Below are positions 11,373 to 44,866 of a stretch of 64,000 bases of DNA, piece by piece (position 1 is the first letter of the stretch; every line of letters begins with the position of its first letter). The notes under the pieces were generated by a model. That model did no database searches. It was not told the origin of the DNA and saw only the letters and a list, made by a program, of their open reading frames with translations. This DNA is from Burkholderiales bacterium (lineage in GTDB: Bacteria; Pseudomonadota; Gammaproteobacteria; Burkholderiales; JAEUOS01): the NCBI GenBank assembly GCA_016790695.1, contig JAEUOS010000081.1, positions 33,169-97,168 of the forward strand, given 5' to 3'. Both the position numbers and the translations under genes were made by a program.

Positions 11373-11377
11373 CGGGC

Positions 11378-18688: not shown

Positions 18689-18838
18689 GGATTCGAGCGG
18701 AACCGGGGACTCGGCGGAGGCGTTCTGTGGCACGGCGGGATCGGCGTGGGCGGCTGGGGAATTTAGGATAGCATTCGCGCCCAGCGGCCCCGGCGCCGCG
18801 CGCCTTCCGACCATGCACCGCATCGCCAAGGAGATCTC

Positions 18839-24729: not shown

Positions 24730-25332
24730 ATGGAACTCACCGGCAGCCAGACCCTTCCCGTCTCACAGGCCATCGCCTGGGATGCGCTCAACGATCCCGA
24801 GATCCTCAAGGCCGCCATCACCGGCTGCGACGAACTCCTGCGCGTCTCGGACACCGAGTTCAGCGCCGCGGTCACCTCGGCGATCGGCCCGGTCAAGGCG
24901 CGCTTCAAGGCCAAGCTGACGCTCTCGGAGGTCGATGCGCCGCATTCCTACAAGATCCGGTTCGACGGCCAGGGCGGCGCCGCCGGCTTCGGCAAGGGCG
25001 AGGCGAAGGTCCGCCTGACGCCCGAAGGCGCCGCCACGCGCCTCGACTACACCGCGCAGGCGAGCGTCGGCGGCAAGCTTGCCCAGATCGGTTCGCGCCT
25101 GGTCGACGCGGCAGCCAAGAAGCTCGCCGACGACTTCTTCACCAAGTTCAACGCCGAACTCGCGCGCCGCTTCGCGCCGGCCGCACCGGCCGCCGCCGCA
25201 CCCGCCGTGGCCGCGACCGCGCCGGCCGCCGGCGCGCATCCTGGCGACGCGGGTCCCGGCACCCTCATCGCCTACGTGGTGGCGCTGCTCGCCATCCTCG
25301 CCGGCGTCGCCGCCTTCCTCGCGCGCGGCTGA
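24730..25332 (+). CDS. CoxG-like SRPBCC protein with C-terminal membrane anchor
   Basis: MELTGSQTLPVSQAIAWDALNDPEILKAAITGC...GPVKARFKAK...GKLAQIGSRLVD is typical of CoxG. An Ala/Pro linker is followed by a TM tail. Confidence 0.8.
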   Translation: MELTGSQTLPVSQAIAWDALNDPEILKAAITGCDELLRVSDTEFSAAVTSAIGPVKARFKAKLTLSEVDAPHSYKIRFDGQGGAAGFGKGEAKVRLTPEGAATRLDYTAQASVGGKLAQIGSRLVDAAAKKLADDFFTKFNAELARRFAPAAPAAAAPAVAATAPAAGAHPGDAGPGTLIAYVVALLAILAGVAAFLARG

Positions 25333-25375
25333 CGCCGGACGCCGCGTCGGTCGCGCACGGCCCGGGCGCATCGCG

Positions 25376-26755
25376 ATGACGGTCCGCTCCGGCAGCGTCG
25401 GCGCGATGCGCCACCGGTTCGACGACCTCCGGACCCTGCTGGCGCGCGCCTCGCCCGCGCGCAGCGGGGACCGCCTCGCGGGCATCGCCGCCGCCAGCGC
25501 CGAGGAGCGCGTCGCGGCGCAGATGGCACTGGCGGACCTGCCGCTCAGGGTCTTTCTCGACGAGGCGGTGATCCCGTACGAGACGGACGAGATCACCCGC
25601 ATCATCGTCGACACCCACGACGCGGCGGCCTTCGCCCCGATCGCCCACCTCACGGTCGGCGGATTCCGCGAATGGCTGCTCGCCTACGAGACCGACGGCG
25701 CGGCACTCGCCGCGGTGGCGCCCGGCATCACGCCGGAGATGGCGGCCGCCGTCAGCAAGATCATGCGCCTGCAGGACATGGTGCTGGTGGCGCGCAAGGC
25801 GCGCGCGGTCGCGCGCTTTCGCTCGACACTCGGGCTGCCGGGGCGCCTGGCCAGCCGGCTGCAGCCGAACCACCCGACCGACGACGAGAAGGGCATCGCC
25901 GCCGCGATCGTCGACGGCCTCATGTACGGCTGCGGCGACGCGGTGATCGGGATCAACCCCGCCACCGACAACCTGGCGCAGGTCACGCGCCTGCTCGAGA
26001 TGCTCGACGGCATCATCCGCGCCTATGAGATCCCCACCCAGTCCTGCGTCCTGACGCACGTGACCACCGCGCTCGAGGCGATGCGCGGCGGCGCGCCGGT
26101 GGACCTGGTGTTCCAGTCGATCGGCGGCACCGAAGCCGTCAATCGCAGCTTCGGCGTGACGGCGGCGCTCCTGGCCGAGGCGCACGCCGCCGCCGCGTCG
26201 CTCGGGCGCGGCAGCGTCGGCGACAACGTCATGTATTTCGAGACCGGCCAGGGCAGCGCGCGGTCCGCCGACGGCCACCACGGCGTCGACCAGCAGACCC
26301 TCGAGGCGCGTGCCTACGGCCTGGCGCGCACGTTTCGGCCCTTCCTGGTCAACAGCGTGGTCGGCTTCATCGGCCCGGAATACCTGAACGGGCGCGAGAT
26401 CATCCGCGCCGGCATCGAGGACCACTTCTGCGGCAAGCTCCTGGGCCTGCCGATGGGTGTCGACGTCTGCTACACCAACCATGCCGACGCCGATTCCGAC
26501 GACGTCGACGTGCTGCTCACCCTGCTCGGCAACGCCGGCGTGAATTTCGTCATGGGCGTGCCGGGCGCGGACGACATCATGCTCAACTACCAGAGCACCT
26601 CGTTTCACGACGTGCTCTACCTGCGCCAGACGCAGGGCCTGCGGCCGGCGCCGGAGTTCGAGGCCTGGCTCGACCGCATGCGGCTGTTCGACGGCCCGCT
26701 CCGCCTGGCGCGCGCCGACGCCGGCCACGCCCTGCTCGGCCTGGCCCGCCGATGA
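25376..26755 (+). CDS. eutB: Ethanolamine ammonia-lyase large subunit
   Basis: DEITRIIVD, GINPATDN, YFETGQGSA, VGFIGPEY and NYQSTSFHD conserved blocks. The start could instead be the ATG at 25406. Confidence 0.92.
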   Translation: MTVRSGSVGAMRHRFDDLRTLLARASPARSGDRLAGIAAASAEERVAAQMALADLPLRVFLDEAVIPYETDEITRIIVDTHDAAAFAPIAHLTVGGFREWLLAYETDGAALAAVAPGITPEMAAAVSKIMRLQDMVLVARKARAVARFRSTLGLPGRLASRLQPNHPTDDEKGIAAAIVDGLMYGCGDAVIGINPATDNLAQVTRLLEMLDGIIRAYEIPTQSCVLTHVTTALEAMRGGAPVDLVFQSIGGTEAVNRSFGVTAALLAEAHAAAASLGRGSVGDNVMYFETGQGSARSADGHHGVDQQTLEARAYGLARTFRPFLVNSVVGFIGPEYLNGREIIRAGIEDHFCGKLLGLPMGVDVCYTNHADADSDDVDVLLTLLGNAGVNFVMGVPGADDIMLNYQSTSFHDVLYLRQTQGLRPAPEFEAWLDRMRLFDGPLRLARADAGHALLGLARR

Positions 26756-29413: not shown

Positions 29414-30727
29414 CTACTTGCCGCGCATGGTCGTCGGCAGCCACAACGCGATCTCCGGCCAGATCCAGAGCAGGGCGATCACCGCGAGCATCAGGAACAC
29501 ATAGGGAAACGACCCCGCCACCACCTCGGAGAACTTGGCGCCGCCCGAGATGCCGTGGATGGTGAACAGGTTCAGCCCGACCGGCGGCGTGATCTGCCCC
29601 AGTTCGATCAGGATGGTGATGATCACGCCCAGCCAGATCAGGTCGAAGCCGATCACCTTGATGATCGGGAGCAGCACCGGCAGCGTCATGTAGATCATCG
29701 AGATGCCGTCGACGAAGCAGCCCAGGATGACGTAGAGCACCACCAGCATCAGGAAGAATTCCCACTTCGACAGCCCCAGCGTCAGCACCCATTCGCTCAG
29801 TTCCCGGCTGACGCCGGAGAAGGTCAGCGCCGTCGAGAGGATCTGCGCGCCGATGATGATCATCGCCACCATCGACGTGGTCTTGACCGTCGACATCAGC
29901 GATTCGGTGAACACCTTCCAGGTCAGCGTCCGGTAGCCGGCCGCCAGCGCCAGCGCGCCGGCGGCGCCGATCGCGGAGGCCTCGGTGGGCGTCGCGAAGC
30001 CGGTGTAGATGCTGCCCAGCACACCGGTGAGCAGGAGCACGATCGGCAGCACGTCCCACAGCGGCCGCGTCGAGTGGACCGCCTGCGCCGCCTCCGCGCT
30101 CGCCTGCTTCGGCGCGATCGACGGGTTGCGGATCAGGATGAAGGCGATGTAGAGCATGAACACCGCGCTCATCAGGATGCCGGGCAGGATGCCCGCGATG
30201 AACAGGCGGCCGACCGACTCCTCGACCAGCGCGGCGTAGAGCACCATCACGATCGACGGCGGGATCAGGATGCCCAGCGTGCCGCCGGCCGCCAGCGAGC
30301 CGAACACCGCGCGCGGCTGGTAGCCCTGGCGCAGCAGTTCCGGGATCGCGACCGTGCCGACGCTGGCCGCCGTGGCCACGCTCGATCCGCTGACCGCCGA
30401 GAAGATCGCGCAGCTGACGATGTTGGCGTGCAGCAGGCCGCCGGGCAGTCGCCGCAGCAGCGTCGCGATGCCCGCGTAGAAATACTTGCTGACGCCGCTG
30501 CGCAGGATCACCTCGCCCATCAGCAGGAACATCGGCACGGCGATGAGAATGTAGCTGTTGGCATTGTTCCAGACCACCGAACTCAGTCCCTGCAGGCCGA
30601 CGTACCCCTTGCTCAGGTAGATGATCAGCACGCCGACGATGCCGAGCGCGAACGCGGTCCACTGACCGACGAGCAGGAACAGCGCCAGCGCACCGAACAG
30701 CACGACCATCAGGAGCCCGCTATCCAT
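29414..30727 (-). CDS. dctM: TRAP transporter large permease subunit
   Basis: 437-aa polytopic protein with a typical DctM composition and length, directly downstream of the small subunit. Confidence 0.9.
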   Translation of the reverse strand: MDSGLLMVVLFGALALFLLVGQWTAFALGIVGVLIIYLSKGYVGLQGLSSVVWNNANSYILIAVPMFLLMGEVILRSGVSKYFYAGIATLLRRLPGGLLHANIVSCAIFSAVSGSSVATAASVGTVAIPELLRQGYQPRAVFGSLAAGGTLGILIPPSIVMVLYAALVEESVGRLFIAGILPGILMSAVFMLYIAFILIRNPSIAPKQASAEAAQAVHSTRPLWDVLPIVLLLTGVLGSIYTGFATPTEASAIGAAGALALAAGYRTLTWKVFTESLMSTVKTTSMVAMIIIGAQILSTALTFSGVSRELSEWVLTLGLSKWEFFLMLVVLYVILGCFVDGISMIYMTLPVLLPIIKVIGFDLIWLGVIITILIELGQITPPVGLNLFTIHGISGGAKFSEVVAGSFPYVFLMLAVIALLWIWPEIALWLPTTMRGK

Positions 30728-30736
30728 GCCTGGTGC

Positions 30737-31219
30737 CTACGGAAGCTTGCGCACCCGATCGAGCAGGAAGCTCGCGAGCTGGAGGACGAGCAGACCGCAG
30801 CCGGCGACCGCGAAGGTCATCGGAATGTACTCGGGCGTCGCCAGCACCGAGATCGCGCGGACGTCCTTCTCGAACGCGTAGTGGACGTGCGAGGCGAGGA
30901 AGAAACCCAGCACCAGCGCGAACGCCAGGCTGGTGATCACGATGAACCAGCGCGCTGCCGCGAGCGGCAGGCCGCGCAGACGGTCGTAAAGGAGCTCGAT
31001 GCGGATGAAGCCGCCTTCGCGCACGGTGTAGGCGAGCCCGAAGAACACGATCGCGACGTTCAGGTAGCCTGCCAGCTCGTCGGCAACCATGGTCGAGTGG
31101 TTGAACTTGCGCGCCACCACCTCGACGCAGACCAGCACGAGGATGAGCACGGTCGAGGCGGCGGCGAGAATGCCGCCGGCATCGACCAGCCTCCTGGTCA
31201 CCCGCGCGAACAGCGTCAC
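30737..31219 (-). CDS. dctQ: TRAP transporter small permease subunit
   Basis: 160 aa with four TM segments, located between the DctP and DctM homologues. Confidence 0.85.
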   Translation of the reverse strand: MTLFARVTRRLVDAGGILAAASTVLILVLVCVEVVARKFNHSTMVADELAGYLNVAIVFFGLAYTVREGGFIRIELLYDRLRGLPLAAARWFIVITSLAFALVLGFFLASHVHYAFEKDVRAISVLATPEYIPMTFAVAGCGLLVLQLASFLLDRVRKLP

Positions 31220-31272
31220 GGTGCGGACTCCCGCGTGTGCCGCCGCACGGCGCCGCGGACGCGACGCCGCAT

Positions 31273-32280
31273 TCAGCGTCCCAGCGCGGCGCGAACCTCG
31301 CGGACCAGCGCGGCGCCGTTGGCGCCGTGCTCATCGCCCCAGGCGCTCCAGTACGGGCGCATGCGCTCGACCAGCTTGTCGACCTCCTCCCTGGGCGGGG
31401 TGAAGATGTCGACGCCGTGCTTGGTGCGCAGCGTCTCGAGATCGCGCAGCTCGTCGGCGGCATTCTGCCGCGTCATGCGCGGCCCCCATTCCGCCGCAAC
31501 CGCGTCGAGCGCCGCGCGTACCGGCGGCGCCAGCTTGTTGTACGCGGCCAGGTTGACCAGAACGTAGTCGGGCCCACCGACATGGATGTTCGGCATGTAG
31601 GCCCACTTGACGAATTCGTACCACTTCGCGCCCATGACGTTGAAGCCGGCCGTGATGAAGCCGTCGACCACGCCGCGCTCGACCGCGACCGGCACCTCGG
31701 CCAGGGTCAGCGAGACCGACGCGGCCCCGAGGCGCTTGAGCATCTCGTTCTGCTTGCCGTCGGTGGTGCGGAACTTGCGCCCGGCGAAGTCCTCGAGGCG
31801 CTTGACCTGCGCGCCGCGCCCGTAGAGATTCTGCTGCGGCCATTCGAAATAGAACAGGGTCTTGACGCCGGCCTTCTGGAACTCCGGCTCGGCATACTTC
31901 TGAATGATCGGCCAGATCCTGTTGAGTTCGTCGGTGGTGCGCACCAGGAAGGGCAGATTGGCCACCGACGCCAGCGGCACGGCGCCGGAGATGAAGCCGG
32001 AATAGCCCTCGCCGAGCTGAACCTGGCCCAGGCCGGTGGCGCGCACGACCTCATTGGCCTTGAACGGGAACTCGCCCGCCGGACGCACGGTGATGTTCAG
32101 CTGGCCGTTGGTGCGCTTCCTGACCTCATCGGCAAATTCCTTCAGGCGCAGGGTGATCGGATGCGTCGCCCCGGGAAAGGCAAACATGTCCCATTGCTGG
32201 ACCTGCGCCTGCGCAAGATTGGCGACCGGCAACGCCGCCAGAGAGACCAACAGGCACGCCATGCGTCGCAGTAAGCTCAT
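31273..32280 (-). CDS. dctP: TRAP transporter substrate-binding protein (DctP family)
   Basis: Signal peptide MSLLRRMACLLVSLAALPVANLAQA; 335 aa; first gene of a P-Q-M operon. Confidence 0.88.
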   Translation of the reverse strand: MSLLRRMACLLVSLAALPVANLAQAQVQQWDMFAFPGATHPITLRLKEFADEVRKRTNGQLNITVRPAGEFPFKANEVVRATGLGQVQLGEGYSGFISGAVPLASVANLPFLVRTTDELNRIWPIIQKYAEPEFQKAGVKTLFYFEWPQQNLYGRGAQVKRLEDFAGRKFRTTDGKQNEMLKRLGAASVSLTLAEVPVAVERGVVDGFITAGFNVMGAKWYEFVKWAYMPNIHVGGPDYVLVNLAAYNKLAPPVRAALDAVAAEWGPRMTRQNAADELRDLETLRTKHGVDIFTPPREEVDKLVERMRPYWSAWGDEHGANGAALVREVRAALGR

Positions 32281-32418
32281 CGTCCCGCTCCTCGTTTGTC
32301 ATTCGTCCGGAAGTCCGCCCGTGCCCGACGCCGCGCCGCGGCTGCGCGCGCTGCGCCCTTCTGCACGTCGCTTGAAGATCGCGCGCCGGCTACGTTATCA
32401 TGATTCCGCGATCCGCAG

Positions 32419-32438
32419 CCATTCGACATACAGAATGG
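32419..32438. promoter_or_regulatory. Inverted repeat CCATTC-N8-GAATGG in the divergent dctP / selenoprotein-operon promoter region
   Basis: Read directly in the only AT-rich patch of the 194-bp intergenic region, about 37 nt upstream of the ATG at 32475. Confidence 0.3.
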
Positions 32439-32474
32439 TATTTTCATGCATTGAATCTTGGAAGGAAGCATGCC

Positions 32475-34205
32475 ATGACGTCGAACGCCTATCAAGTGGT
32501 CTGGCCGCGCAGCGCGAAGAGCGTCACCGTCAAGCCGCTCGCCCCGCGCCTGGACGCGCTTCAGGGCAAGACGATCGGCTTCGTCTGGGACTACCTGTTC
32601 CGCGGCGACGAGATCTGGCCCGCGCTCAAGGAGGCACTCGCGGCACGCTTTCCCGGCATGCGCTTCGTCGACTACGAGACCTTCGGCTCCACCCACGGCG
32701 AGGACGAGCACCAGGTTCTCGCGAACATGCCGACGCTCATTCGCGAGCAGCGGATCGACGCGATCGTCTCCGGGATGGGCTGCTGAGGGAGCTGCACGCC
32801 CGCCGTGCTGCGGGCGAGTGCGGTTGCCGAACTGGCCGGCGTGCCGACGGCATCGCTGTGCTGCGAGGGCTTCGTGGGGCAGGCGCGCTCGACGTCCGAG
32901 GGCCTGGGCTTCCCCAACCTGCAGGTGGCCCGCGTCCCGGGCCATGTCGACGTCCAGTCGGCCGAAGAGTTGCGCGCCAACGTGCTGGCGGTGACCGTCG
33001 ACGACGTCATCCGCTGCCTCACCGCGCCCGTCGCCGCGGTCACGCTGGGCCGCGACCCGGGACCGCGCGAGATCGTCTTCTCCGGCAGCTTCGAGGACGT
33101 CAACCGCTTCTTCCTCGAGAACCGCTGGAGCGACGGCCTGCCGATCGTCCCGCCCACCCCCGAGAAGATCGCCGAGTTCCTGGCCTTCACCGACCGCGAC
33201 CCCGATGAAGTCCTGGGCAAGCTGCTGCCGGACAACCGCGAGGCGACCATCTGGAACATCGCCGTGAACGGCGTGATGGCCGGCTGCCGCCCCGAGTACA
33301 TGCCGGTGCTCGTCGCCGCGGTCGAGGCGATGGCCGACCCCGTGTACGGCGTCGAGCACAGCGGCAACACGCCGGGGTCCGAGACCCTGATCGTTCTCAA
33401 CGGACCGATCGCGCGCGAACTCGGCTTCAACTACGAGCAGGGTGCGCTGCGCGACGGCTTCCAGCCGAACACGACCATCGGCCGGTTCTGGCGCCTGTAT
33501 CTGCGCAACGTCGCCGGCTTCCTCCTGCACCACAACGACAAGGGCACGTTCGGGGGCACCTGGCGCGTGGTCCTGGCCGAGAACGAGGAGGTGCTGCGCC
33601 GCATCGGCTGGCCGACCGTCGCCGGCGACATGGGCGCGCCGGAACGGGCCAACGCCGTGACCGTCTCGCGCTTCACCGGCTCCAACGTGGTCGCCTCGGT
33701 GTTCGGCGACACCGCGGAGAAGTGCCTGCCCTACCTCGCCGACGCGCTGGTCTCGCACACGACCTGGGAGGTGATCTTCACGGTCGGCATGTCGACCGGC
33801 ATGTACCGCCCGATGCTGATCCTGAGCCCGGTGATCGCGGAGACCATCGCCAAGTCGGGCATGTCCAAGGCGGACGTGCAGCGCTGGCTGTTCGAGAACG
33901 CGCGGATGCCGGCGCAGCGCTTCGAGCGCTACATGTCGGGCTGGACCAACCTCATTCCCGGCAAGCGCTCGCTGCTCGAGCTGGCGCGGCTCGGCAAGGC
34001 GCCGCGCGCGTTCGGCGCCTCCGGCGACCCGCAGCGCCTGGTGCCGATCGTCGGCAAGCCCGAGGACTTCATGATCGCCGTCAGCGGCGACCCGTTGCGC
34101 TCGAACTGCTATGTCCTGGTCCACAACGGCATCCTCGGCTATCCGACCATGAAGCAGGTGATGCTGCCGGCAGCCTGGCAGGACAAGCTCGCGCGCGCGT
34201 CCTGA
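32475..34205 (+). CDS. Putative selenoprotein: UGSC-type redox domain (Sec at codon 104, TGA 32784-32786) fused to a domain of unknown function of about 385 aa
   Basis: Track ORFs 32400-32786 and 32805-34205 share one frame and are split only by one TGA. Read-through gives GMGC-U-GSCTPAV. SD GGAAGGAAG precedes the ATG at 32475. There is no SD before the GTG at 32805. A SECIS-like hairpin lies just 3' of the TGA. Confidence 0.7.
32790..32825 (+). other. SECIS-like stem-loop immediately downstream of the in-frame UGA
   Basis: 5'-AGCUGCACGCCCGC[CGUGCU]GCGGGC(GA)GUGCGGUU-3'. 14 bp (two G-U pairs), a 2-nt 3' bulge and a 6-nt apical loop. The loop G-U falls at +22/+23 counting the U of UGA as +1. 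Confidence 0.55.
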
Positions 34206-34218
34206 GCGGAGCACCCGG

Positions 34219-35466
34219 TTGCCAATGACCGAAGAACGCGCCTGGATCCTCAATCCGGCGGGTCAGCAGGGCAGCGGCCAGTGGATCGACGACACCCTGG
34301 CCGAGCGGGTGCGCGAGGCCGGCATGACGGCGCGCACGCCGCTGGTCGGGAGGTTTCCGCGCACCCGGGTCGAGGCGGTCCCCGCCGACGATCTCGATGC
34401 CCGCGTCACGGCGCTGTTCCAGGCGCGCGGCTGGACCGACGGACTGCCGGTGGTCGCGCCGACGACGGCGCGCGTCCGCCGCATGCTGCGCTTCACGCGC
34501 CACAGCCCCGATCACAGCCTCGGCGACGTCGATCCCCTGAAGGGACTGGCGACCATCGAAAAGATCGCGGCCAACGCGGTCATGGCGGGGTGCCTGCCGT
34601 CCTACCTGCCGGTGGTCGTCGCGGCGGTCGAGGCGATACTCGACGCCGACTTCAACCTGCGCGGCGTGCAGACCACCGACGAGAACGTCGCGCCGCTGCT
34701 GGTGGTCAACGGTCCGGTGGCCGATGCGCTCGGCATCAACGCCGGGTTCGGCGCGCTCGGTCCCGGCTGGCGCGCCAATGCCAGCATCGGCCGCGCGGTC
34801 CGCCTCGTCATGAACAACCTCGGCGGCGGCTGGCCCGGAACCGTGTCCTTCGCCGGGTTGGCCCAGCCCGGCCGCTACAGCCTGTGCCTCGCGGAGAACA
34901 CGGCCGAGAGTCCGTGGGAGCCGCTGCACGTCGAGGCCGGATTCGCGGCCGCCGCCAGCGTGGTCACGGTGATGCGCGCGGAGTCGGTGATCAACGTCAC
35001 CGGCGGCCTGGCCGAGATCGCCAGCGTGATGGGAACGGCCGCATCGGCATTCGCGGCGATGTGGAGCGGTCGCTCCACGGTGATCGTCTCGCCCGCGCTG
35101 GCTGCCGCACTCGCCGCCGAGGGAATGAGCAAGGCCGCGGTCAAGGCATGGCTGTTCGCGCATGGCCGCTGGCCGTCCGACGGCTGGCGCGCGTCCTGGC
35201 TGTTCAAGACCGTGGGTGGCATCGAGCGCTGGCCGGCGGCAGTCCGCGATGCCGCGGCTGCCGGTGCCGTCCCCGTCGCCGCCTGCGCCGACGATCTCGT
35301 GCTGGTCGTCGCCGGCGGCAACGTTCCGATCGCGCAGCACGCCTACTGCCCCGCCTGGGGTTTTCCGCCGGCGCGCATCAGCCGCGCCATCGACCTGCCC
35401 GAGAATTGGGATGAACTGCTCGCCGAGGAACAGATGACGCACATGCGCATGCTGGGCAACCAATGA
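34219..35466 (+). CDS. Protein of unknown function, paralog of the C-terminal domain of the preceding selenoprotein
   Basis: Shares WTDGLPVVAPT (vs WSDGLPIVPPT), NAVMAGCLPSYLPVVVAAVEA (vs NGVMAGCRPEYMPVLVAAVEA) and LVVNGP (vs IVLNGP). The start is either the TTG at 34219 (GGAG 8 nt upstream) or the ATG at 34225. Confidence 0.8.
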   Translation: MPMTEERAWILNPAGQQGSGQWIDDTLAERVREAGMTARTPLVGRFPRTRVEAVPADDLDARVTALFQARGWTDGLPVVAPTTARVRRMLRFTRHSPDHSLGDVDPLKGLATIEKIAANAVMAGCLPSYLPVVVAAVEAILDADFNLRGVQTTDENVAPLLVVNGPVADALGINAGFGALGPGWRANASIGRAVRLVMNNLGGGWPGTVSFAGLAQPGRYSLCLAENTAESPWEPLHVEAGFAAAASVVTVMRAESVINVTGGLAEIASVMGTAASAFAAMWSGRSTVIVSPALAAALAAEGMSKAAVKAWLFAHGRWPSDGWRASWLFKTVGGIERWPAAVRDAAAAGAVPVAACADDLVLVVAGGNVPIAQHAYCPAWGFPPARISRAIDLPENWDELLAEEQMTHMRMLGNQ

Positions 35467-36389
35467 AGACCGGCTCGTGCGAACTGGCCGTGGTGGGCGG
35501 CGGCATCACCGCGCTGACCGCGGCCTGGCATGCGGCGCTGGACGGCTGCCAGGTGATGCTGCTCGCCGGCGACGATCTGCCGGGCGGCCTGGTGGCCAAT
35601 ATCGGCGCCGTCGACGGCTTTCCCGGCAGCGCACCGGTCGCCGGGATGGCGATGGCGGAGCGGCTCATGCAGGGCATCGTCGCGCACGGCGGCATCATCG
35701 AGCGCAGCGTCGCCGAAGGCATCGACGCCGCCAGTGGCGGTCTGGTGCTGCGCACTGCCACGGCACGCTGGCGCGCCGGCAAGGTCATCGCCGCGACCGG
35801 CGCGCGCCTGGCCGCGCTCGACGTCCCCGGCGCCGCGGCGCTGCGCGACAAGGGGGTGCTGCAATGCGCGTGGTGCAATGCCGGGCTGTATCGCGGTCGC
35901 CGGGTGGTGGTGATCGGCGCGGGGGATGCGGCCTTCCAGGAAACCCTGCACCTGGCCGGCTGCGGCGCGAAGGTCACCATGGTCATCCGCGGCGAGGCGG
36001 TTCGCGCCCGCCGGTCGCTGGTGGAACAGGCCGCCGCCAACGAGGCGATCACGTTCCTCTGGTCGACCGAGGTGACCGAAGTCATCGGCACCGACCATGT
36101 GACCGGCGTCGCGCTGCGCGAACACGGCAGCGGCGAGACCTCGTCGCTCGACTGCGACGCCGTGTTTCCGTACATCGGCCTGGTGCCGGCGGGCGCCTGG
36201 CTCGGCGACCTGGTCGAGACCGGGCCCGCGGGCGCGGTGATCACCGACGCACGCCTGCGCACGCGCACCAGCGGCCTGTTCGCGGCCGGTGCGGTCCGCC
36301 AGGGGTACGGCGGCCGGCTCACCGACGCGGTGGGCGAAGCGACCCTGGCCGCGCGCGAAGCCTGCGCCGCGCTGGCCGGCAACCCGTAG
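35463..36389 (+). CDS. Thioredoxin-reductase-family FAD/NAD(P)H flavoprotein with CAWC redox motif
   Basis: ATGA overlap with the upstream gene. FAD motif VVGGGITALTAA, redox centre QCAWCNAGLYRGRRVVVIGAGDAAFQE (TrxB has CATCDG...GGGNSA), and C-terminal GLFAAGAVR. Confidence 0.85.
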   Translation: MKTGSCELAVVGGGITALTAAWHAALDGCQVMLLAGDDLPGGLVANIGAVDGFPGSAPVAGMAMAERLMQGIVAHGGIIERSVAEGIDAASGGLVLRTATARWRAGKVIAATGARLAALDVPGAAALRDKGVLQCAWCNAGLYRGRRVVVIGAGDAAFQETLHLAGCGAKVTMVIRGEAVRARRSLVEQAAANEAITFLWSTEVTEVIGTDHVTGVALREHGSGETSSLDCDAVFPYIGLVPAGAWLGDLVETGPAGAVITDARLRTRTSGLFAAGAVRQGYGGRLTDAVGEATLAAREACAALAGNP

Positions 36390-37234: not shown

Positions 37235-37702
<468 letters not shown>

Positions 37703-38548: not shown

Positions 38549-40846
38549 TCAGGCCGCCTTGCGCGCGGCATCGTTGAGGGTGCGCCAGAGGACGCCGGGC
38601 GTGACCGGCATCTGCAGGTCGGCGACGCCGGCCGGGCGCACCGCGTCCATCAGCGCATTCATCAGGGCCGGCAGCGAGCCCGAGCAGCCGGATTCGCCGA
38701 CGCCCTTGGCGCCCATCAGGTTGGTCGCGGTCGGCACCGGGTGGGATTCGCGCGTGAAGCTGCCCTTGAGCCAGCCGGCGCGCGGCATCGGATAGTCCAT
38801 GAAGCTCGCGGTGAGGAACTGGCCGGATTCGCGGTCGTACACCGCGTGCTCGCCGAACACCTGCCCGACGCCCTGCACCACCCCGCCGTGCACCTGGCCT
38901 TCGACGAGCACCGGCTGCAGCACGTTGCCCAGGTCGTCGACCGCGGTGTAGCGCACGACCTCGGCCACGCCGGTCTCCGGATCGATCTCCACTTCCGCGA
39001 CATGGCAGCCGTTCGGGTAGGTCGCCGGCGACGAGGTCTCGGCGTTGCAGTCGAGCGGATGGTTGCCGTCGGCGTCGGGCGGCAGCGCACGCGCGAGTTC
39101 GGTCAGCGTGATCGACCGCCCGCCGCCGCTGAAGGTGCCGGCCGCATAGGTCACCGCCTCCGTGCCGAGCCGGGCCGCCGCCAGCGGCGTCGCCTTCTCG
39201 ATCAGCGCCAGCGCCAGCGCCTTGAACGCGCTGCCCTGCCCCGCGGCGGTCCGCGACCCGCCGGTGCCGTTGCCGACCAGGCGGTCGTAGGCCGGGTCGC
39301 TCGCGCGGTACTGCACCGTCGCCGCGGGAACGCCGAGCGTCGCGGCGAACACGCCGACGAACGTGGTCTCGTGGCCCTGTCCGGAGCCGCCCGCCATGCA
39401 ATGGATGGTGATCACGCCGTCGCTGCCGACCCGCGCGGCGGTCTGGTCCTTGTTGAACACCCCGGCCGCGGCGGCCTCGAGATAGCTGGCGAAGCCGATG
39501 CCGCGCAGCCGGCCGCGCGCGGCGCTCTGCGCGCGCCGCCCGGAAAAGCCGGCATGATCGGCGGCCGCGAGCGCATGGGCGAACACTGCCGGGAAGTCGC
39601 CGCTGTCGTAGATCGGGCCGGTGGCGGTCTTGTAGGGCATCTGCGCGGGCGCGATGAAATTGCGCTGGCGCAGCGCGACCGGGTCGAAGCCGTGCTCGTG
39701 CGCGGCCTGGTCGACCAGGCGTTCGATCGCGTAGGCGATGTCGGGCCGGCCGGCGCCGCGATAGGCCGAGATCGGCGTGGTGTTGGTGTAGGCCAGCACG
39801 GATCGCACGTGGACCGCCGGCACCTTGTAGACCCCGTGGGAGGTGATCGAGATGTTCTGCGTGCCGATGAACGCGCCGAACGGCCCGGCGTACGCGCCGA
39901 GGTCGATGGTGTCGCTCCAGCGGAAGGCGAGGAAGTTGCCCGCTTCGTCCAGCGCGACCTCGCCGGTCAGCGAGAGCGCCCGGCCGTGGTAGTCGGACAG
40001 GAACGTGTCGGCGCGCGACCCGACCCACTTCACCGGCCGGCCCAGTTCCTTGGCGGCAAGCATCGCCAGGAAGTACTCCGGGTACGGTGTGCCGCGGATG
40101 CCGAAGCTGCCGCCGACATCCTCGACGATCAGGTCGACGCTCTTCGCCGACAGGCCGGTGATCTGCTCGATGTGCGAGCGCGCGCCGATCAGGCCCTGGG
40201 ACGGCGCGTGCAGCGTGAAGCGCCCGGCGGCGGCATCGTACGAGGCGAGGCAGGCGCGCGGCTCCATCGGGTTGCAGACCAGGCGCTGGCTGTCGACCGT
40301 CAGCTTCGTGACGTGGCGCGCGCGCGCGAACGCGGCATCGGTGGCGGCGGCGTCGCCGTGCTCGTGCACGAAGGCGACGTTGCCCTCGATCTCGTCGTGC
40401 ACGCGCGGCGCACCCGGCGCGACGGCGTCGGCGAAGGTCACCACCGACGTCAGTTCCTCGTAGTCGACCGCGATCAGTTCGACCGCGTCCTGCGCGGCGA
40501 GCGTCGAGTCCGCGACCACGAAGGCCACCGCCTGGCCGACATGGGCGACGTGGTCCCGAGCCAGCACCGGGTAGAACGGCTTCTTCATCGGCTGGCCGCT
40601 GCGGTCCTTGGTGGCGATGCCGCCGGCGATGCTCTTGTAGCCGGCGCGCTCGACATCCGCGCACGTCAGCACGGCCTTGACGCCGGGCGCGGCCAGCGCC
40701 GCGGCGGTGTCGATGGCGCGGATGCGCGCGGCCGCGTGGGGCGACCGCAGCACGGCGGCATACAACTGCCCGGGCAGGTTCCAGTCGGCGGCATAGCGGC
40801 CCTGGCCCTGGATCAGGCGCAGGTCTTCACGGCGTGAGGGTTGCAT
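38549..40846 (-). CDS. Molybdo-hydroxylase large subunit (xanthine dehydrogenase family, CoxL form-II-like)
   Basis: REDLRLIQGQGRYAAD N-terminus; active-site loop AYRGAGR (not the AYxCSFR of true CO dehydrogenase); 765 aa. Confidence 0.9.
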   Translation of the reverse strand: MQPSRREDLRLIQGQGRYAADWNLPGQLYAAVLRSPHAAARIRAIDTAAALAAPGVKAVLTCADVERAGYKSIAGGIATKDRSGQPMKKPFYPVLARDHVAHVGQAVAFVVADSTLAAQDAVELIAVDYEELTSVVTFADAVAPGAPRVHDEIEGNVAFVHEHGDAAATDAAFARARHVTKLTVDSQRLVCNPMEPRACLASYDAAAGRFTLHAPSQGLIGARSHIEQITGLSAKSVDLIVEDVGGSFGIRGTPYPEYFLAMLAAKELGRPVKWVGSRADTFLSDYHGRALSLTGEVALDEAGNFLAFRWSDTIDLGAYAGPFGAFIGTQNISITSHGVYKVPAVHVRSVLAYTNTTPISAYRGAGRPDIAYAIERLVDQAAHEHGFDPVALRQRNFIAPAQMPYKTATGPIYDSGDFPAVFAHALAAADHAGFSGRRAQSAARGRLRGIGFASYLEAAAAGVFNKDQTAARVGSDGVITIHCMAGGSGQGHETTFVGVFAATLGVPAATVQYRASDPAYDRLVGNGTGGSRTAAGQGSAFKALALALIEKATPLAAARLGTEAVTYAAGTFSGGGRSITLTELARALPPDADGNHPLDCNAETSSPATYPNGCHVAEVEIDPETGVAEVVRYTAVDDLGNVLQPVLVEGQVHGGVVQGVGQVFGEHAVYDRESGQFLTASFMDYPMPRAGWLKGSFTRESHPVPTATNLMGAKGVGESGCSGSLPALMNALMDAVRPAGVADLQMPVTPGVLWRTLNDAARKAA

Positions 40847-41815: not shown

Positions 41816-44056
41816 TCACGTGCGCGCGCGCTGCAGGGCGCGCCAGACCTTGGGCGCGGTGAAAGGCATGTCGAGATGGGTCACGCCGCATTCCGCCAGC
41901 GCATCGAGCACCGCGGCGGCGACCGCCGGCGGTGCGCCGATGCTGCCGCCCTCGCCGGCACCCTTGGCGCCGAGCGGGTTGGTGGTGCACGGCGCGGATT
42001 CGTCGAGGAACACGCCGAGCGCGCGCACGATCCCCGCGCGCGGCATTGCGTAGTCGGCGAACGAGCCGGTGAGGAGCTGCCCGCTGCGGCGGTCGTACAC
42101 CGCCTCTTCGAGCAGCGCCTGACCCAGCCCCTGGGCCACCGCGCCGGCGACCTGGCCGTGGACGATCAGCGGGTTGATCACCCGGCCGACATCGTCGACG
42201 GCGGTGAAGCGCGTCACCGCGACCGCGCCGGTATCGCGGTCGATCTCGACCTCGCAGACATGGCAGCCGTTGGGCCAGGAGAACGCGTCGACCTTGACCT
42301 TGCCCTCGACCGACAGCGTCCCGCCCTGCGCGCGCGCGAACGCGAACCACGCATCGGCCGCGGGCGCGGCGCCGCGTGCGCGCGCCAGCGCGACGAGGCG
42401 GGCGCAGGCGTCGCCGATCGCCGCGCCGCCGATGAAGAGCGACCGCGAGCCGCCGCTGCCGCCGCCGCGGGCGACGCGATCGGTGTCGCCCTGGACGATG
42501 CGCACGCGCGCCAGATCCACCCCCAGCGCTTCCACGACCAGCTGCGCGTACGCCGTCTCCAGGCCCTGCCCCATGTTCTGGGTGCCCGAATACACCGTCA
42601 CGGTCTCCGCGCCGAGCTCCAGGCGCACCGATTCGACCGGGTTGGCCGCGCCGGTCGACTCGATGAAGTAGGCGAGACCACGCCCGCCGAGGCGCCCGCG
42701 CGCGCGCGCCGCCGCGCGCCGGCCCGCATGCCCGTCCCAGTCGGCCGCTGCCAGCGCAAGCGCGGTCACGCGCGCGAAGTCGCCGCTGTCGTAGACCTCG
42801 CCCATCGCGCTGGTGAACGGCATCGCCGCGCGCGGCACGAAATTGCGCCGGCGCAGGTCCAGCGCCGGGATGCCGGTCGCCAGCGCGGCCGCCTCGACCA
42901 GTCGTTCGACGAGGTAGGCGGCCTCGGGACGGCCGGCGCCGCGGTAGGCATCCACCGGCGCCGTGTGGGTCTGCACCACCCGCACGTCGAGGTCGATGAG
43001 CGGCGTCCGATACGGACCCGCCAGCGGCTTGGTGCCGGCCAGGGTCGGGATCACCGCGCCCAGGTGCGAGACGTAGGCGCCGACATTGGCCACGGTCGCG
43101 ACCCGCATCGCGAGGAAGGTGCCGTCGGCGTCGAGCGCGAGCGCGGCCTCGCTGACGCTGTCGCGGCCGTGGCTGTCGGCGAGAAAGCTCTCGCTGCGCG
43201 TGGCGACCCAGCGTACCGGCCTGCCCGTGTGCCGCGCCGCCTGCGCCACCGCGACGTATTCCGGGTAGAGAAAGCTCTTGGCGCCGAAGCCGCCGCCGAT
43301 GTCCTCGACCAGCACCCGCACCCGCTCGGGCGCGATGCCGAAGACCGCGTCGGCGAGCTGGGCGCGCGCGAGGTGCGGCATCTGGCAGCCGACGCGCAGC
43401 GTCAGCCGGCCGTCCTGCCAGTCGGCGAGCGCGGCGCGCGGCTCGAGCGCATTGGCGACCAGCCGATTGTTGACCACCTCGACGCGGGCCACGTGCGCGG
43501 CGGCGGCGAACGCGGCATCCACCGCGCCGGGGTCGCCATGGGCAAAGACGCCGAGCAGGTTGTCGGGGGCCTCGCGATTGACGCGCGGCGCGCCATCGGC
43601 CAGCGCGGCGCGCGCCTCGACCACGGCATCGTGCGGCTCCCATTCGACCGCGACCGCCTCGGCGGCGTCCGCGGCCGTCTGCGCCGAGGCCGCCACCACG
43701 ATGGCGACCGCCTCGCCGGCGTGGCGCACCCAGCCCGCGGCCAGCGCGTGGCGCGGCGGCGCGCGCATCGGCGTGCCGTCGGCGCGCCGCAGCACCGCCG
43801 CGTGCGGCAGCGGCCGCACGCCCGCGTCGAGCAGGTCGGCGCCGGTCAGCACCGCGTGCACGCCGGGCATGGCGCGCGCGGCGGCGGTGTCGACGGCGAT
43901 GATGCGCGCATGGGCATGCGGCGATCGCACGAACGCGGCGTGCAGCATGCCGGGCAGCGCGGCATCGGCGACGAAGCGCCCGGCCCCGGTCACCAGGCGC
44001 CGGTCCTCGACGCGCGCCACCGGCGCGCCGATGCCGCCCGAAGCGACGGGCCGCAT
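41816..44056 (-). CDS. Second molybdo-hydroxylase large subunit paralog, with no cognate S/M subunits of its own
   Basis: RVEDRRLVTGAGRFVAD, the AYRGAGRPEAAY loop and GAKGAGEGGSIG; 746 aa. Start overlaps the upstream stop by 1 nt. Confidence 0.9.
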   Translation of the reverse strand: MRPVASGGIGAPVARVEDRRLVTGAGRFVADAALPGMLHAAFVRSPHAHARIIAVDTAAARAMPGVHAVLTGADLLDAGVRPLPHAAVLRRADGTPMRAPPRHALAAGWVRHAGEAVAIVVAASAQTAADAAEAVAVEWEPHDAVVEARAALADGAPRVNREAPDNLLGVFAHGDPGAVDAAFAAAAHVARVEVVNNRLVANALEPRAALADWQDGRLTLRVGCQMPHLARAQLADAVFGIAPERVRVLVEDIGGGFGAKSFLYPEYVAVAQAARHTGRPVRWVATRSESFLADSHGRDSVSEAALALDADGTFLAMRVATVANVGAYVSHLGAVIPTLAGTKPLAGPYRTPLIDLDVRVVQTHTAPVDAYRGAGRPEAAYLVERLVEAAALATGIPALDLRRRNFVPRAAMPFTSAMGEVYDSGDFARVTALALAAADWDGHAGRRAAARARGRLGGRGLAYFIESTGAANPVESVRLELGAETVTVYSGTQNMGQGLETAYAQLVVEALGVDLARVRIVQGDTDRVARGGGSGGSRSLFIGGAAIGDACARLVALARARGAAPAADAWFAFARAQGGTLSVEGKVKVDAFSWPNGCHVCEVEIDRDTGAVAVTRFTAVDDVGRVINPLIVHGQVAGAVAQGLGQALLEEAVYDRRSGQLLTGSFADYAMPRAGIVRALGVFLDESAPCTTNPLGAKGAGEGGSIGAPPAVAAAVLDALAECGVTHLDMPFTAPKVWRALQRART

Positions 44057-44850
44057 CAGGGCTCGGTCTTGCGCGCCGGCCAGTCGACCACGCGCCGCTC
44101 GTGAAACGCCCGGATGCCGGTGCGGAAATCCTCGGTCAGCAGGATGTTGCCGACCGCCGCGTTGCCGTAGGCCAGCGCCTGCGGCAGCGTCATGTCCTGC
44201 ATCGCCTTGAAGGCCAGCTTGCCGCGCCGCGTGGCCTCCGGCGACTTGTCGATCAGCCGCCGCACCAGCCAGTCGAGTTTCGCATCGAGCTCGGCCGGCG
44301 GCACCACGTAATTGACCAGCCCCAGTTCCAGCGCCTCGGCCGCGTTCACCGGCTCGGCCGTCAGCATGAGTTCCAGCAGCTTGCGCCGGGGCACCAGGCG
44401 CTGCAGGTAGGCAAGCCCCAGGGTATTGGCCAGGCCGACCTTGGCCTCGGGAATGCCGAACATCGCGCGGTCCGTCGCCACCGCCAGGTCGACCATCGAG
44501 AGCAGCGACAGCCCCGGCGCCAGCGCGTGCCCGTTGACGCGCGCGACGATCGGCACCGCGCAGGCCTCGACGGCGGCGAACAGGCGCGTGATCGGATGGT
44601 TGAGCCAGTCCGGCGCGAGGCCGCGCAGGCTGCGCGCCTCGTCGCTCGCGAGATCCCCGCCGCCGCAGAAGAACTTCTCGCCGGCGCCGGTGAGCACGAT
44701 GACGCGCACCGCCGGATCCGCCTGCGCCGCGGCGATGGCGTCGATCATGTGCGGAAACAGTTCCCACGTCACCTGGTTCATCGCCTCCGGGCGATTGATC
44801 GTGAGCCAGCGCACGGCGCCGCGGGTTTCGCTCAACAGCAGGTCGGACAT
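44056..44850 (-). CDS. Enoyl-CoA hydratase/isomerase (crotonase) family protein
   Basis: VRWLTINRPEAMNQ...LTGAGEKFFCGGGDL...VNGHALAPGLSLL; 264 aa. Confidence 0.85.
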   Translation of the reverse strand: MSDLLLSETRGAVRWLTINRPEAMNQVTWELFPHMIDAIAAAQADPAVRVIVLTGAGEKFFCGGGDLASDEARSLRGLAPDWLNHPITRLFAAVEACAVPIVARVNGHALAPGLSLLSMVDLAVATDRAMFGIPEAKVGLANTLGLAYLQRLVPRRKLLELMLTAEPVNAAEALELGLVNYVVPPAELDAKLDWLVRRLIDKSPEATRRGKLAFKAMQDMTLPQALAYGNAAVGNILLTEDFRTGIRAFHERRVVDWPARKTEP

Positions 44851-44866
44851 GACGGTCTTCCTGTGG

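Follow-up and report, generated by a model that had tools for sequence, protein, structure and literature searches.

The question raised by this locus is whether two open reading frames are two genes, or one gene split by a TGA that is read as selenocysteine (Sec). The window (the whole stretch of DNA that was analysed, 64,000 nucleotides) contains ORF 32400-32786, which has an ATG at 32475, and ORF 32805-34205. They share one reading frame and nothing but the TGA at 32784-32786 splits them, exactly as an earlier note on this DNA described. Reading through it gives ...IVSGMGC-[TGA]-GSCTPAVLRASAVAELAGVPTASLCCEGF.... No other in-frame TGA of the window is flanked on both sides by coding-like GC3, and the coding signal of the downstream ORF is intact (GC3 0.96). 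We argue that the two ORFs are almost certainly one protein of 576 residues and that TGA 32784 encodes Sec. The gene also ends with a TGA, at 34203-34205, so the recoding has to depend on context.

The length of the protein follows from the choice of start codon. The Shine-Dalgarno-like GGAAGGAAG precedes ATG 32475 and the N-termini of homologues (M..Y[DQ]VVWPR) line up with it, so the product is 576 aa long and Sec is residue 104. The earlier note had counted Sec104 from this ATG and placed the UGA inside C-U-G-S-C, and both the sequence and the homologues agree with it. It had also dismissed GTG 32805 as a start. That codon does lack an upstream Shine-Dalgarno sequence, and in the minimum-free-energy fold it sits in the apical loop of a hairpin (32804-32809). 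The public records, including those that NCBI names "UGSC family (seleno)protein", hold a 466-aa fragment that starts at this GTG inside the SECIS loop. The gene should be recorded as one 576-aa selenoprotein. The features of the locus are collected in the table.

Table. Features of the selenoprotein locus and its neighbours, in window coordinates
Feature	Position	Strand	Basis
Divergent TRAP transporter: dctP 31273-32280, dctQ 30737-31219, dctM 29414-30727	29414..32280	-	Pfam, NCBIfam TRAP_S1
Shine-Dalgarno-like GGAAGGAAG	32460..32468	+	sequence; 6 nt before true start codon ATG 32475
Selenoprotein gene, UGSC module + C-terminal domain, 576 aa	32475..34205	+	sequence, Pfam, homologues
UGSC domain, residues 7-183, unbroken across TGA	32493..33023	+	Pfam PF24696
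Sec codon UGA, residue 104, motif G-M-G-C-U-G-S-C (UxxC redox motif)	32784..32786	+	Sec/Cys homology
Extended hairpin, lower 8 bp + GA bulge	32790..32825	+	minimum-free-energy fold; poorly conserved
SECIS core: helix GCCCGC/GCGGGC, 6 bp, loop CGUGCU (32804-32809)	32798..32815	+	comparative pairing
C-terminal domain, residues ~200-576 (~375 aa)	33072..34202	+	homologue alignments, no family match
C-terminal-domain paralogue, 413 aa from ATG 34225 (ORF opens TTG 34219)	34225..35466	+	sequence similarity
Thioredoxin-reductase-like flavoprotein, 308 aa	35463..36389	+	Pyr_redox_2

The family to which the N-terminal part belongs is clear. Pfam PF24696 (UGSC) matches the read-through product over model positions 1-171 of 172 with 104.4 bits against a cut-off of 25 (E 9.5e-30). 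This match spans the TGA, and each ORF half alone matches the corresponding half of the model. The family is defined by a U/C-G-S/A-C motif and the window reads C-[TGA]-G-S-C. The NCBIfam equivalog NF041046, which describes stand-alone proteins of about 147 aa, matches residues 31-173 (E 4.5e-14) with 52.7 bits and so falls below its cut-off of 125. This makes the protein a member of a divergent, fused subfamily and not the stand-alone equivalog. The name 'UGSC family (seleno)protein', which the earlier note gave, is the one NCBI uses for the homologues. The gene is not new in kind. The UGSC-containing protein has been listed as a selenoprotein family since 2007-2008 by Zhang & Gladyshev (PMC1976440, PMC2398784), the fusion was already reported in 2008, and the biochemical function of the family was still unassigned in the literature as of 2026 (PMC13188914). 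The window gene shares with the family (PF24696, NF041046, e.g. Hyphomonas neptunium ABI76733.1) the domain, the U-G-S-C (UxxC) motif and the alternation of Sec with Cys, and gene callers mis-annotate the other members in the same way. It differs in that the module makes up the N-terminal third of a longer chain of 576 aa rather than standing alone, and in an extra Cys directly before Sec (C-U-G-S-C).

The column of the TGA was then compared across homologues. TGA is found at 105 of 109 homologous loci and Cys (TGC or TGT) at the other 4, and together these span Burkholderiales, Reyranella, Rhodospirillales and Acetobacteraceae. Nine full-length homologues, 578-607 aa long, have Cys there and align across the site. 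They bear out the profile check that had been proposed for the read-through product. A fusion gene from the Thermodesulfobacteriota (L026) has TGA at the same column at only 31% identity. A bacterial selenoprotein gene is marked by an in-frame UGA where homologues have Cys, together with conservation before and after it, and this is the pattern seen here. Across the whole window-type clade (64-86% identity) the downstream frame is under purifying selection.

If the UGA is decoded as Sec, a SECIS element should lie just downstream of it. The earlier note had proposed a 14-bp stem (32790-32803 with 32810-32825) with a GA bulge. The minimum-free-energy fold of the window reproduces it at -28.8 kcal/mol, but only the upper 6-7 bp and the loop are conserved. 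The upper helix (32798-32803 with 32810-32815) is paired in 99% of cells of the homologue alignment, and a seventh pair, C32797-G32816, is possible in the window. The lower 8 bp are paired in 74% of cells, and several of these pairs are broken in a third to half of the sequences. The fold of this single sequence is unexceptional at 72% G+C (z = -1.28; 23 of 200 shuffles are as stable), so the case for a SECIS rests on comparative evidence.

There are several lines of such evidence. The closing pair of the core helix is compensatory (GC 39, AU 8, GU 3), and this covariation runs through a Thr wobble site and the second codon position of an Ala/Val codon. The hairpin lies within the codons for T-P-A-V-L-R. 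Across 96 distinct sequences nothing changes at positions 16-31, not even at the wobble positions 18, 21, 24, 27 and 30, while the flanking wobble positions vary freely in the same genes. Gene-wide, 4.7% of conserved codons have zero wobble entropy, compared with five in a row (P-A-V-L-R) at the hairpin. The Cys-form genes serve as a control. They encode the same TPAV[LIV]R with different codons and the hairpin collapses: the core is worth -2.6 to -6.1 kcal/mol in Cys forms, compared with -13.6 in the window and -8.5 to -13.6 in the other Sec forms. The consensus of the loop among the Sec forms is CGUGYU. Comparison of these sequences supports the view that the hairpin is under selection at the RNA level.

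It must be noted that some of this nucleotide invariance cannot be separated from that of the TPAVLR peptide, although the frozen wobble positions and the Cys-form control speak against the peptide as its cause.

The hairpin can also be compared with the published bSECIS model (PMC13188914 Fig. 2A). That model calls for an apical loop of 3-9 nt, an upper stem of 4-16 bp, 16-37 nt between UGA and loop, and a minimum free energy of -7.5 kcal/mol or lower. The loop should have a G in its first two positions, usually followed by G or U. The hairpin after UGA 32784 falls within all four published constraints. Its 6-nt loop has G-U at positions 2-3, its stem is 6-7 bp, it begins 11 nt after the UGA with the loop at 17 nt, and its energy is the -13.6 kcal/mol given above. 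A hairpin inside the ORF just 3' of the UGA with a G-U in the loop is common to the window, to the bSECISearch model and to its E. coli fdhF prototype. The sequence is unrelated to the fdhF SECIS, however, and its conserved upper helix lacks a bulged U. The minimal fdhF SECIS requires a spacing of 11 nt, which equals the spacer in the window. An Rfam scan of 32600-33000 at E <= 10 returned no SECIS family, but this does not weigh heavily, given how diverse bacterial SECIS elements are. The stand-alone UGSC genes of Actinobacteria have a different hairpin of -12.4 kcal/mol with a GUC loop 19 nt after the UGA, which also fits the bSECIS model. The Thermodesulfobacteriota fusion has only a weak one (loop UAC, 15 nt from the UGA, -4.9 kcal/mol).

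Sec also needs its own machinery. Searches of the 64-kb window found no selA, selB, selD or tRNA-Sec, so we infer the Sec competence of the source organism from its relatives. In the window-type clade sel genes adjoin the fusion gene at 0 of 32 informative loci. At least 15 loci of the sister clade have tRNA-Sec beside their homologue of it. One locus (L051) has SelB, tRNA-Sec, SelA and SelD in the same block as the UGSC-fusion gene and another (L042) has SelA and SelB. A third (L017), which belongs to the same orthologue group as the window gene, has SelA and SelD nearby. We argue the best explanation is that 32475-34205 is a single gene for a UGSC-family fusion protein, and that its UGA at 32784 is very probably read as Sec by means of the SECIS. 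All of the tests proposed for a selenoprotein gene split by ORF calling that were run agree with this.

One can imagine a scenario where TGA 32784 is a genuine stop that leaves a 103-aa fragment and a 466-aa protein from GTG 32805. Gene callers and public annotation take this view, and most database homologues, including those named by NCBI, are 465-468 aa long and begin at the equivalent GTG. The missing Sec machinery of the window could be cited for it too. However, a genuine stop would cut a single Pfam domain in half where the Cys homologues are continuous. It would require initiation at a GTG that has no Shine-Dalgarno sequence and lies inside a stable hairpin. It also does not account for a frame and a TGA that 105 loci have kept, with selection at the RNA level directly after the TGA, or for tRNA-Sec and sel genes that adjoin the gene in relatives. 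We consider a genuine stop highly improbable. It is less probable still that the gene is a pseudogene or that the TGA comes from faulty sequencing or assembly. One base change from TGC or TGT, by mutation or misreading of a Cys codon, would suffice to make a TGA, and the window seems to be a metagenome-type assembly because its closest relatives are MAGs. Against this, 105 independent loci share the TGA and come from numerous samples and taxa, the ORF beyond it keeps its coding signal, and the SECIS is conserved in the TGA forms only. The comparative data effectively refute this scenario.

Two scenarios remain. The hairpin might not be a SECIS at all, but a by-product of TPAVLR and the codon bias of high-G+C genomes, or it might act in regulation or pausing with no connection to SelB. 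The peptide is invariant, CCC, GCC, GUG, CUG and CGG are common codons since these genomes are G+C-rich, and both the Rfam scan and the shuffle z-score offer the SECIS little help. This does not explain why Cys forms encode TPAV[LIV]R with other codons and have no hairpin, why neighbouring wobble sites of the same genes vary freely, why the closing pair covaries, or why the distance, loop size and loop G-U all fit the bSECIS model. We rate it very unlikely, if less so than a genuine stop. The other scenario is that the gene is of the Sec type by descent in an organism that lost or lacks the sel machinery, so that the UGA is read inefficiently as Cys or Trp or is a recent relic. The 64-kb window without sel genes and the 0 of 32 adjacent cases in its clade are what one would expect then. 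But purifying selection acts on the downstream frame clade-wide and the gene keeps an intact TGA and SECIS core, and such conservation would decay fast without Sec decoding. SelA and SelD near the gene in its own orthologue group (L017) also speak against it. This is the least unlikely of the four and still improbable. Decoding of UGA 32784 as Sec is the reading we retain in what follows.

The rest of the protein is harder to place. In the C-terminal domain Cys271 is invariant and lies within the motif NGVMAGC, and other motifs are WSDGLPxVPPT and EHSGNTPG. Grouped at 50% identity, the family of this domain comes to 4,264 clusters, most of them from Proteobacteria of soil and freshwater. The earlier note was right about the architecture, a UGSC module fused to this domain, but it is not unusual here as thousands of homologues share the fusion. 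In the Acidimicrobiia the module and the domain are also found as separate adjacent genes. Neither Pfam (E <= 10) nor NCBIfam has a match for the domain or its paralogue, and a PDB sequence search with the domain gave only chance-level matches to ARF (E >= 0.017). The AlphaFold2 models of the domain are confident and have no fold match in the PDB. Foldseek against the PDB with a full-length Cys homologue reached E 1.8e-3 at best, and all of its matches were generic alpha/beta domains. With the stand-alone paralogue the best match was barbiturase at E = 1.9 and TM 0.20. This is not meaningful, so the idea of a YjgF/barbiturase-like repeat was dropped.

A 'UGSC/Unknown_1 fusion' from the Global Ocean Sampling metagenome is described by Zhang & Gladyshev 2008 (PMC2398784, Fig. 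S1A). There Unknown_1 is a conserved domain with a conserved Cys that also occurs stand-alone. The fusion in the window has the same architecture, with an invariant Cys271 and stand-alone paralogues, so by comparison of descriptions the C-terminal domain is possibly Unknown_1. PMC2398784 limits Unknown_1 to a few aquatic organisms, whereas the domain in the window has the wide soil and freshwater distribution given above. For the UGSC module PMC2398784 suggested a Trx-like fold, but in the AlphaFold2 model the module looks like a parallel beta-alpha-beta (alpha/beta) domain. Sec104-x-x-Cys107 would then fall where a beta-strand leads into the next helix.

The neighbouring genes offer another line of reasoning. 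The fusion gene, the C-domain paralogue and the thioredoxin-reductase-like (TrxR-like) flavoprotein form a conserved operon. The paralogue has 36% identity to the C-terminal domain of the fusion (E 8e-37). The UGSC module is absent from it, but the invariant Cys is retained. Of the 32 informative loci in the window-type clade, 24 have a separate paralogue gene, and all homologues of the paralogue are annotated 'hypothetical'. The ATG of the flavoprotein overlaps the stop codon of the paralogue (ATGA). Its redox CxxC is C134-A-W-C137, and the CAxC is kept in 59 of 59 homologues beside UGSC-fusion genes. It scores 196.5 bits against TIGR01292 (thioredoxin-disulfide reductase), where the cut-off is 343, so it is TrxR-like and not a TIGR01292 equivalog. 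This gene adjoins Sec and Cys forms of the fusion gene alike. The TRAP transporter is linked to the fusion gene, in either orientation, in 15 of the 32 informative loci of the clade. Linkage to a Mo-hydroxylase (CoxSML-like) was rejected as a functional clue, as it is mere synteny among close relatives.

On the reading retained here, the SECIS, a G+C-rich helix of 6-7 bp that begins 11 nt after the UGA and closes the loop CGUGYU, very probably recruits SelB and Sec-tRNA(Sec), which decode UGA 32784 as Sec. A working model of a redox relay can be drawn by analogy, and it is pure inference. Electrons might pass from NAD(P)H through FAD and the CAxC dithiol of the flavoprotein to a selenenylsulfide of Sec104 and Cys107. 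The reduced selenolate of the UGSC module would then serve a catalytic C-terminal domain, which probably acts in complex with the paralogue. The substrate might be a small carboxylate that the TRAP transporter next to the gene brings in. Such a reductase system would be a dedicated one, and its logic would resemble that of selenoenzymes fed by Trx/TrxR. The adjacent TrxR-like gene, the CAxC in every one of the 59 neighbours compared, the split UGSC and domain genes of Acidimicrobiia and the invariant domain Cys are all consistent with such a relay.

Known systems show where this analogy holds. As in the Trx/TrxR and AhpF/AhpC relays, a low-Mr TrxR-type flavoprotein lies beside a UxxC/CxxC protein. 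However, judged by its TIGR01292 score the flavoprotein is no true TrxR, and the operon has no thioredoxin gene. Glycine and D-proline reductase offer a works-like comparison, with no membership claimed, where a selenolate would by analogy be recycled by a pyridine-nucleotide-dependent flavoprotein. PrdB of D-proline reductase also carries a UxxC motif (PMC2398784 Table 2). The Pfam families of GrdB and PrdB match neither the N-terminal half, the C-domain, the paralogue nor the Cys homologue at E <= 10. Unlike the clostridial systems, the hosts are aerobic or facultative Proteobacteria and not Stickland fermenters.

We propose tentatively, and with more doubt than belief, that the operon encodes a so far uncharacterised three-component NAD(P)H-dependent selenoenzyme. 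The flavoprotein would recycle the Sec-x-x-Cys, the catalytic domain, with a fold not represented in the PDB, would form a hetero-oligomer with its paralogue, and a TRAP-imported carboxylate would be reduced or otherwise transformed. If this is true, the sister clade keeps a whole sel operon and tRNA-Sec in one block for this selenoprotein. The partnership with the flavoprotein, the fused and split modules and the invariant Cys are testable handles on function. Further ones come from gene linkage, which in one clade is to the TRAP transporter and in another to the sel operon with tRNA-Sec. At least two hosts of the gene are in culture, Reyranella soli NBRC 108950 and Rhodospirillales bacterium URHD0017.

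The TGA at 32784-32786 shares its frame with the ORF at 32400/32475-32786 and the ORF at 32805-34205. Translation through it reads ...IDAIVSGMGC*GSCTPAVLRASAVAELAGVPTASLCCEGF..., which agrees with the claim of the earlier note that the two ORFs are joined by this codon. The ATG at 32475 is the true start, because it is preceded by GGAAGGAAG at 32460-32468 and the N-termini of homologues align to it. At its end the gene has a TGA of its own as stop codon (34203-34205). TGA is therefore Sec at 32784 and stop at 34203, so its meaning is set by context. Among the in-frame TGA codons of the whole window, a scan returned 32784-32786 as the sole site flanked on either side by coding-like third-position G+C.

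Cys homologues aligned to an in-frame TGA are the classical Sec/Cys criterion. A search of 5.8 billion proteins with the read-through protein gave more than 4,500 matches. The bulk are 465-468 aa long at 81% query coverage, so their start corresponds to GTG 32805. Fewer matches, of 578-607 aa, span the entire query, and when aligned these have Cys exactly at the TGA column (GMGC-C-GAC or GVGA-C-GSC). There is no full-length Sec form among the best 120 of the matches. The Pfam UGSC model (PF24696) runs through residues 7-183 of the read-through protein at model positions 1-171 of 172 (E 9.5e-30, 104 bits, cut-off 25), and the N- and C-terminal ORF fragments each match only their own half of it. 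The unbroken match and the full-length Cys homologues bear out the proposed continuity across the TGA. We argue that the fusion gene is very probably a real selenoprotein gene.

One can imagine a separate protein that begins at GTG 32805. This codon sits in the apical loop of the hairpin, as had been claimed and as the fold confirms. Public annotations do start there, within the SECIS loop. The entries named 'UGSC family (seleno)protein' (database proteins P0010, P0023, P0033, P0040 and others, and L004:10331-11728 in a homologous locus) are such 465-468-aa fragments. Two longer entries in the protein alignment of homologues (A1), P0067 (861 aa) and P0078 (888 aa), look like gene-caller run-ons of a truncated fusion into the downstream paralogue; P0078 has an apparent frameshift near the junction.

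The motif column was compared in 29 reference-genome and MAG loci (Burkholderiales, Reyranella, among them the cultured R. soli NBRC 108950, Rhodospirillales bacterium URHD0017 and Acetobacteraceae), 80 metagenome loci and 4 Cys-form loci. The motif region is present in 109 loci, of which 105 have TGA at the column and 4 have TGC or TGT. A Thermodesulfobacteriota fusion at 31% identity keeps the TGA (GD-U-GSC), as do stand-alone UGSC genes in three Acidimicrobiia-type genomes (GD-U-GAC).

It is worth considering the hairpin on its own. The MFE fold of 32784-32840 (-28.8 kcal/mol) is the structure drawn in the earlier note, but its lower 8 bp are paired in only 74% of cells and broken in many sequences. 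In this 72% G+C DNA, 23 of 200 shuffled sequences reach a fold as stable (z = -1.28). Counted from the U of UGA (position 1), the conserved helix is R15-C-C-C-G-C20 / G27-C-G-G-G-Y32 around the loop C21-G-U-G-Y-U26 (window 32798-32815), and 99% of cells in this upper helix are paired. In a set of 96 distinct 60-mers there is essentially no variation at positions 16-31, wobble positions 18, 21, 24, 27 and 30 among them; the flanking wobble positions 6, 9, 12, 33, 36, 39, 42 and 45 vary freely. The closing pair, formed by the Thr wobble base and the second base of the Ala/Val codon, co-varies (GC 39, AU 8, GU 3, unpaired 2). At the codon level, 4.7% of 213 conserved-amino-acid codons in 22 orthologues have zero third-position entropy. 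P-A-V-L-R has five of these in a row, and no other six-codon window is as frozen as T-P-A-V-L-R apart from the overlapping one shifted by one codon. The Cys forms serve as a control: they keep the peptide TPAV[LIV]R with other codons (CCA/CCT, CTA/ATA/GTG, CGT/CGC). Their core hairpin folds at -2.6 to -6.1 kcal/mol, against -8.5 to -13.6 for the Sec forms.

The published bacterial SECIS model asks for a loop of 3-9 nt, an upper stem of 4-16 bp, a G within the first two loop nucleotides, as a rule with G or U after it, a UGA-loop distance of 16-37 nt and an MFE of at most -7.5 kcal/mol (PMC13188914, Fig. 2A). In the window hairpin the loop is 6 nt long and has G-U at positions 2-3, the stem is 6-7 bp, the UGA-loop distance is 17 nt and the energy is -13.6 kcal/mol, which places it within all four constraints. 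The Acidimicrobiia stand-alone genes have a hairpin of unrelated sequence that still falls within this model (5-bp stem, loop GUC, UGA-loop 19 nt, -12.4 kcal/mol). No Rfam family matches the window hairpin. The data show SelB-type recoding signals on a single gene. The distant Thermodesulfobacteriota fusion, from a single-cell genome (L026:10292), has a weak, off-consensus hairpin (loop UAC, UGA-loop 15 nt, -4.9 kcal/mol).

No tRNA gene lies in the window, which is part of a longer source contig (109.8 kb), and SelA, SelB and SelD were not found among the roughly 40 window genes scanned with Pfam. In at least 15 loci of relatives the homologous gene is followed, after 10-100 nt, by a tRNA-Sec (anticodon TCA) that ARAGORN detects. 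Over all loci SelB occurs in 18, SelA in 10 and SelD in 5, and L017, from the window's own orthologue group, is among the loci with sel genes. The order in L051 is TrxR-like, UGSC fusion, SelB, tRNA-Sec, SelA, with SelD on the opposite strand; in L042 it is SelA, SelB, TrxR-like, UGSC fusion, tRNA-Sec. In the MAC-U-GSC sister clade, mostly from soil and peat metagenomes, selA, selB and selD share a block with the fusion gene and its nearby tRNA-Sec. This suggests that the machinery is retained in that clade for the sake of the UGSC fusion as its selenoprotein.

Features of the UGSC operon and of homologous loci (L handles)
Feature	Coordinates	Strand	Remarks
UGSC fusion gene	32475-34205	+	576 aa; in-frame TGA at codon 104
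C-domain paralogue	34225-35466	+	413 aa; starts 19 nt after fusion gene; 36% identity, E 8e-37
TrxR-like flavoprotein	35463-36389	+	308 aa; C134-A-W-C137; start overlaps paralogue stop (ATGA)
Separate C-domain and UGSC genes	L027:~10001-10830 and ~11100-11650		same in L028, L029
tRNA-Sec near UGSC fusion, MAC-U clade	L042:7719-7811 (example)		L034, L036, L037, L039, L042, L044, L046, L056-L058, L061, L064, L066
sel block	L051:7956-12524		

More than 5,000 database proteins make up the family of the paralogue. All are labelled 'hypothetical', and neither Pfam nor NCBIfam has a model for them. The flavoprotein scores under the TrxR equivalog cut-off, and its CAxC is kept in 59/59 homologues encoded next to UGSC fusions. 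Divergent from the fusion gene are the genes of a TRAP transporter, DctPQM. Among 32 informative loci of the window-type MGC-U clade, 24 have the separate paralogue and 15 have TRAP genes in either orientation. The MAC-U clade is without the paralogue and has the TrxR-like gene immediately upstream in 16/28 loci and sel genes in 14/28. Cys-form loci also retain the TrxR-like neighbour. In Acidimicrobiia / Ca. Poriferisocius the C-domain and UGSC are separate adjoining genes in the order opposite to the fusion, which is Rosetta-stone evidence that the two work together.

A confident AlphaFold2 model of a full-length Cys homologue (pLDDT 86.8, pTM 0.89) gives the UGSC module as a beta-alpha-beta-alpha array, with C-[U/C]-G-x-C between strand 97-103 and helix 108-121. 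The only PDB fold hits, among them MccF, SIS and B12-binding domains, are Rossmann- or flavodoxin-like alpha/beta domains with weak scores (E >= 1.8e-3). The modelled module thus appears to be a parallel alpha/beta fold, not the Trx-like fold suggested in 2008. The C-terminal domain (~375 residues) has no sequence match in Pfam, NCBIfam or PDB, and even a confident model of it alone, via the paralogue (pLDDT 84.1), has no PDB fold match (best Foldseek E = 1.9). An exhaustive HMMER search puts its family at 4,264 clusters at 50% identity. It has one invariant Cys, fusion C271, in the motif N-[GA]-V-M-A-G-C, found in every alignment and in distant loci.

A possible route would pass electrons from NAD(P)H to the FAD of the TrxR-like flavoprotein, on to its own CAxC, then to the Sec104/Cys107 selenenylsulfide of the UGSC module and finally to the active site of the C-domain, with its invariant Cys. 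The C-domain would act on a TRAP-imported carboxylate. We give this relay about an even chance, and any specific substrate idea a far smaller one. That the operon is a new three-component selenoenzyme is a tentative proposal, with the odds somewhat against it.

The window gene joins an already known family. A 'UGSC-containing protein' was listed in 2007 as a selenoprotein of unknown function (PMC1976440), a 'UGSC/Unknown_1 fusion' with a conserved Cys has been reported (PMC2398784), and reviews from 2022 and 2026 give no function. Compared by description only, Unknown_1 fits the C-domain here. The earlier note was right in its diagnosis but over-rated the novelty, as the family and a UGSC fusion were on record. 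What may be new and useful is the operon and sel-gene linkage, the fission/fusion evidence and a C-domain without a structural relative.

Two CoxL/xanthine-dehydrogenase-type molybdopterin large subunits and a [2Fe-2S] small subunit (37235-37702, 38549-40846 and 41816-44767, all on the minus strand) converge on the UGSC operon. They are syntenic in the close Burkholderiales relatives L003 and L014, and nothing beyond this synteny points to a functional link. In this 72% G+C window the longest-ORF calls run too far, as at 17546-19486 (-) versus 18839-19825 (+) and 41816-44767 (-) versus 44056-45075 (-). In these calls the acyl-CoA dehydrogenase domains do not begin before residue 277, nor the Mo-cofactor domains before 260, and the extensions overlap real neighbours (TctC, enoyl-CoA hydratase). 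The ORF at 25079-26755 (+) encodes the ethanolamine ammonia-lyase large subunit EutB (E 5.5e-210). Its domain starts at ORF residue 112, and the start is probably mis-set or there is an N-terminal extension.
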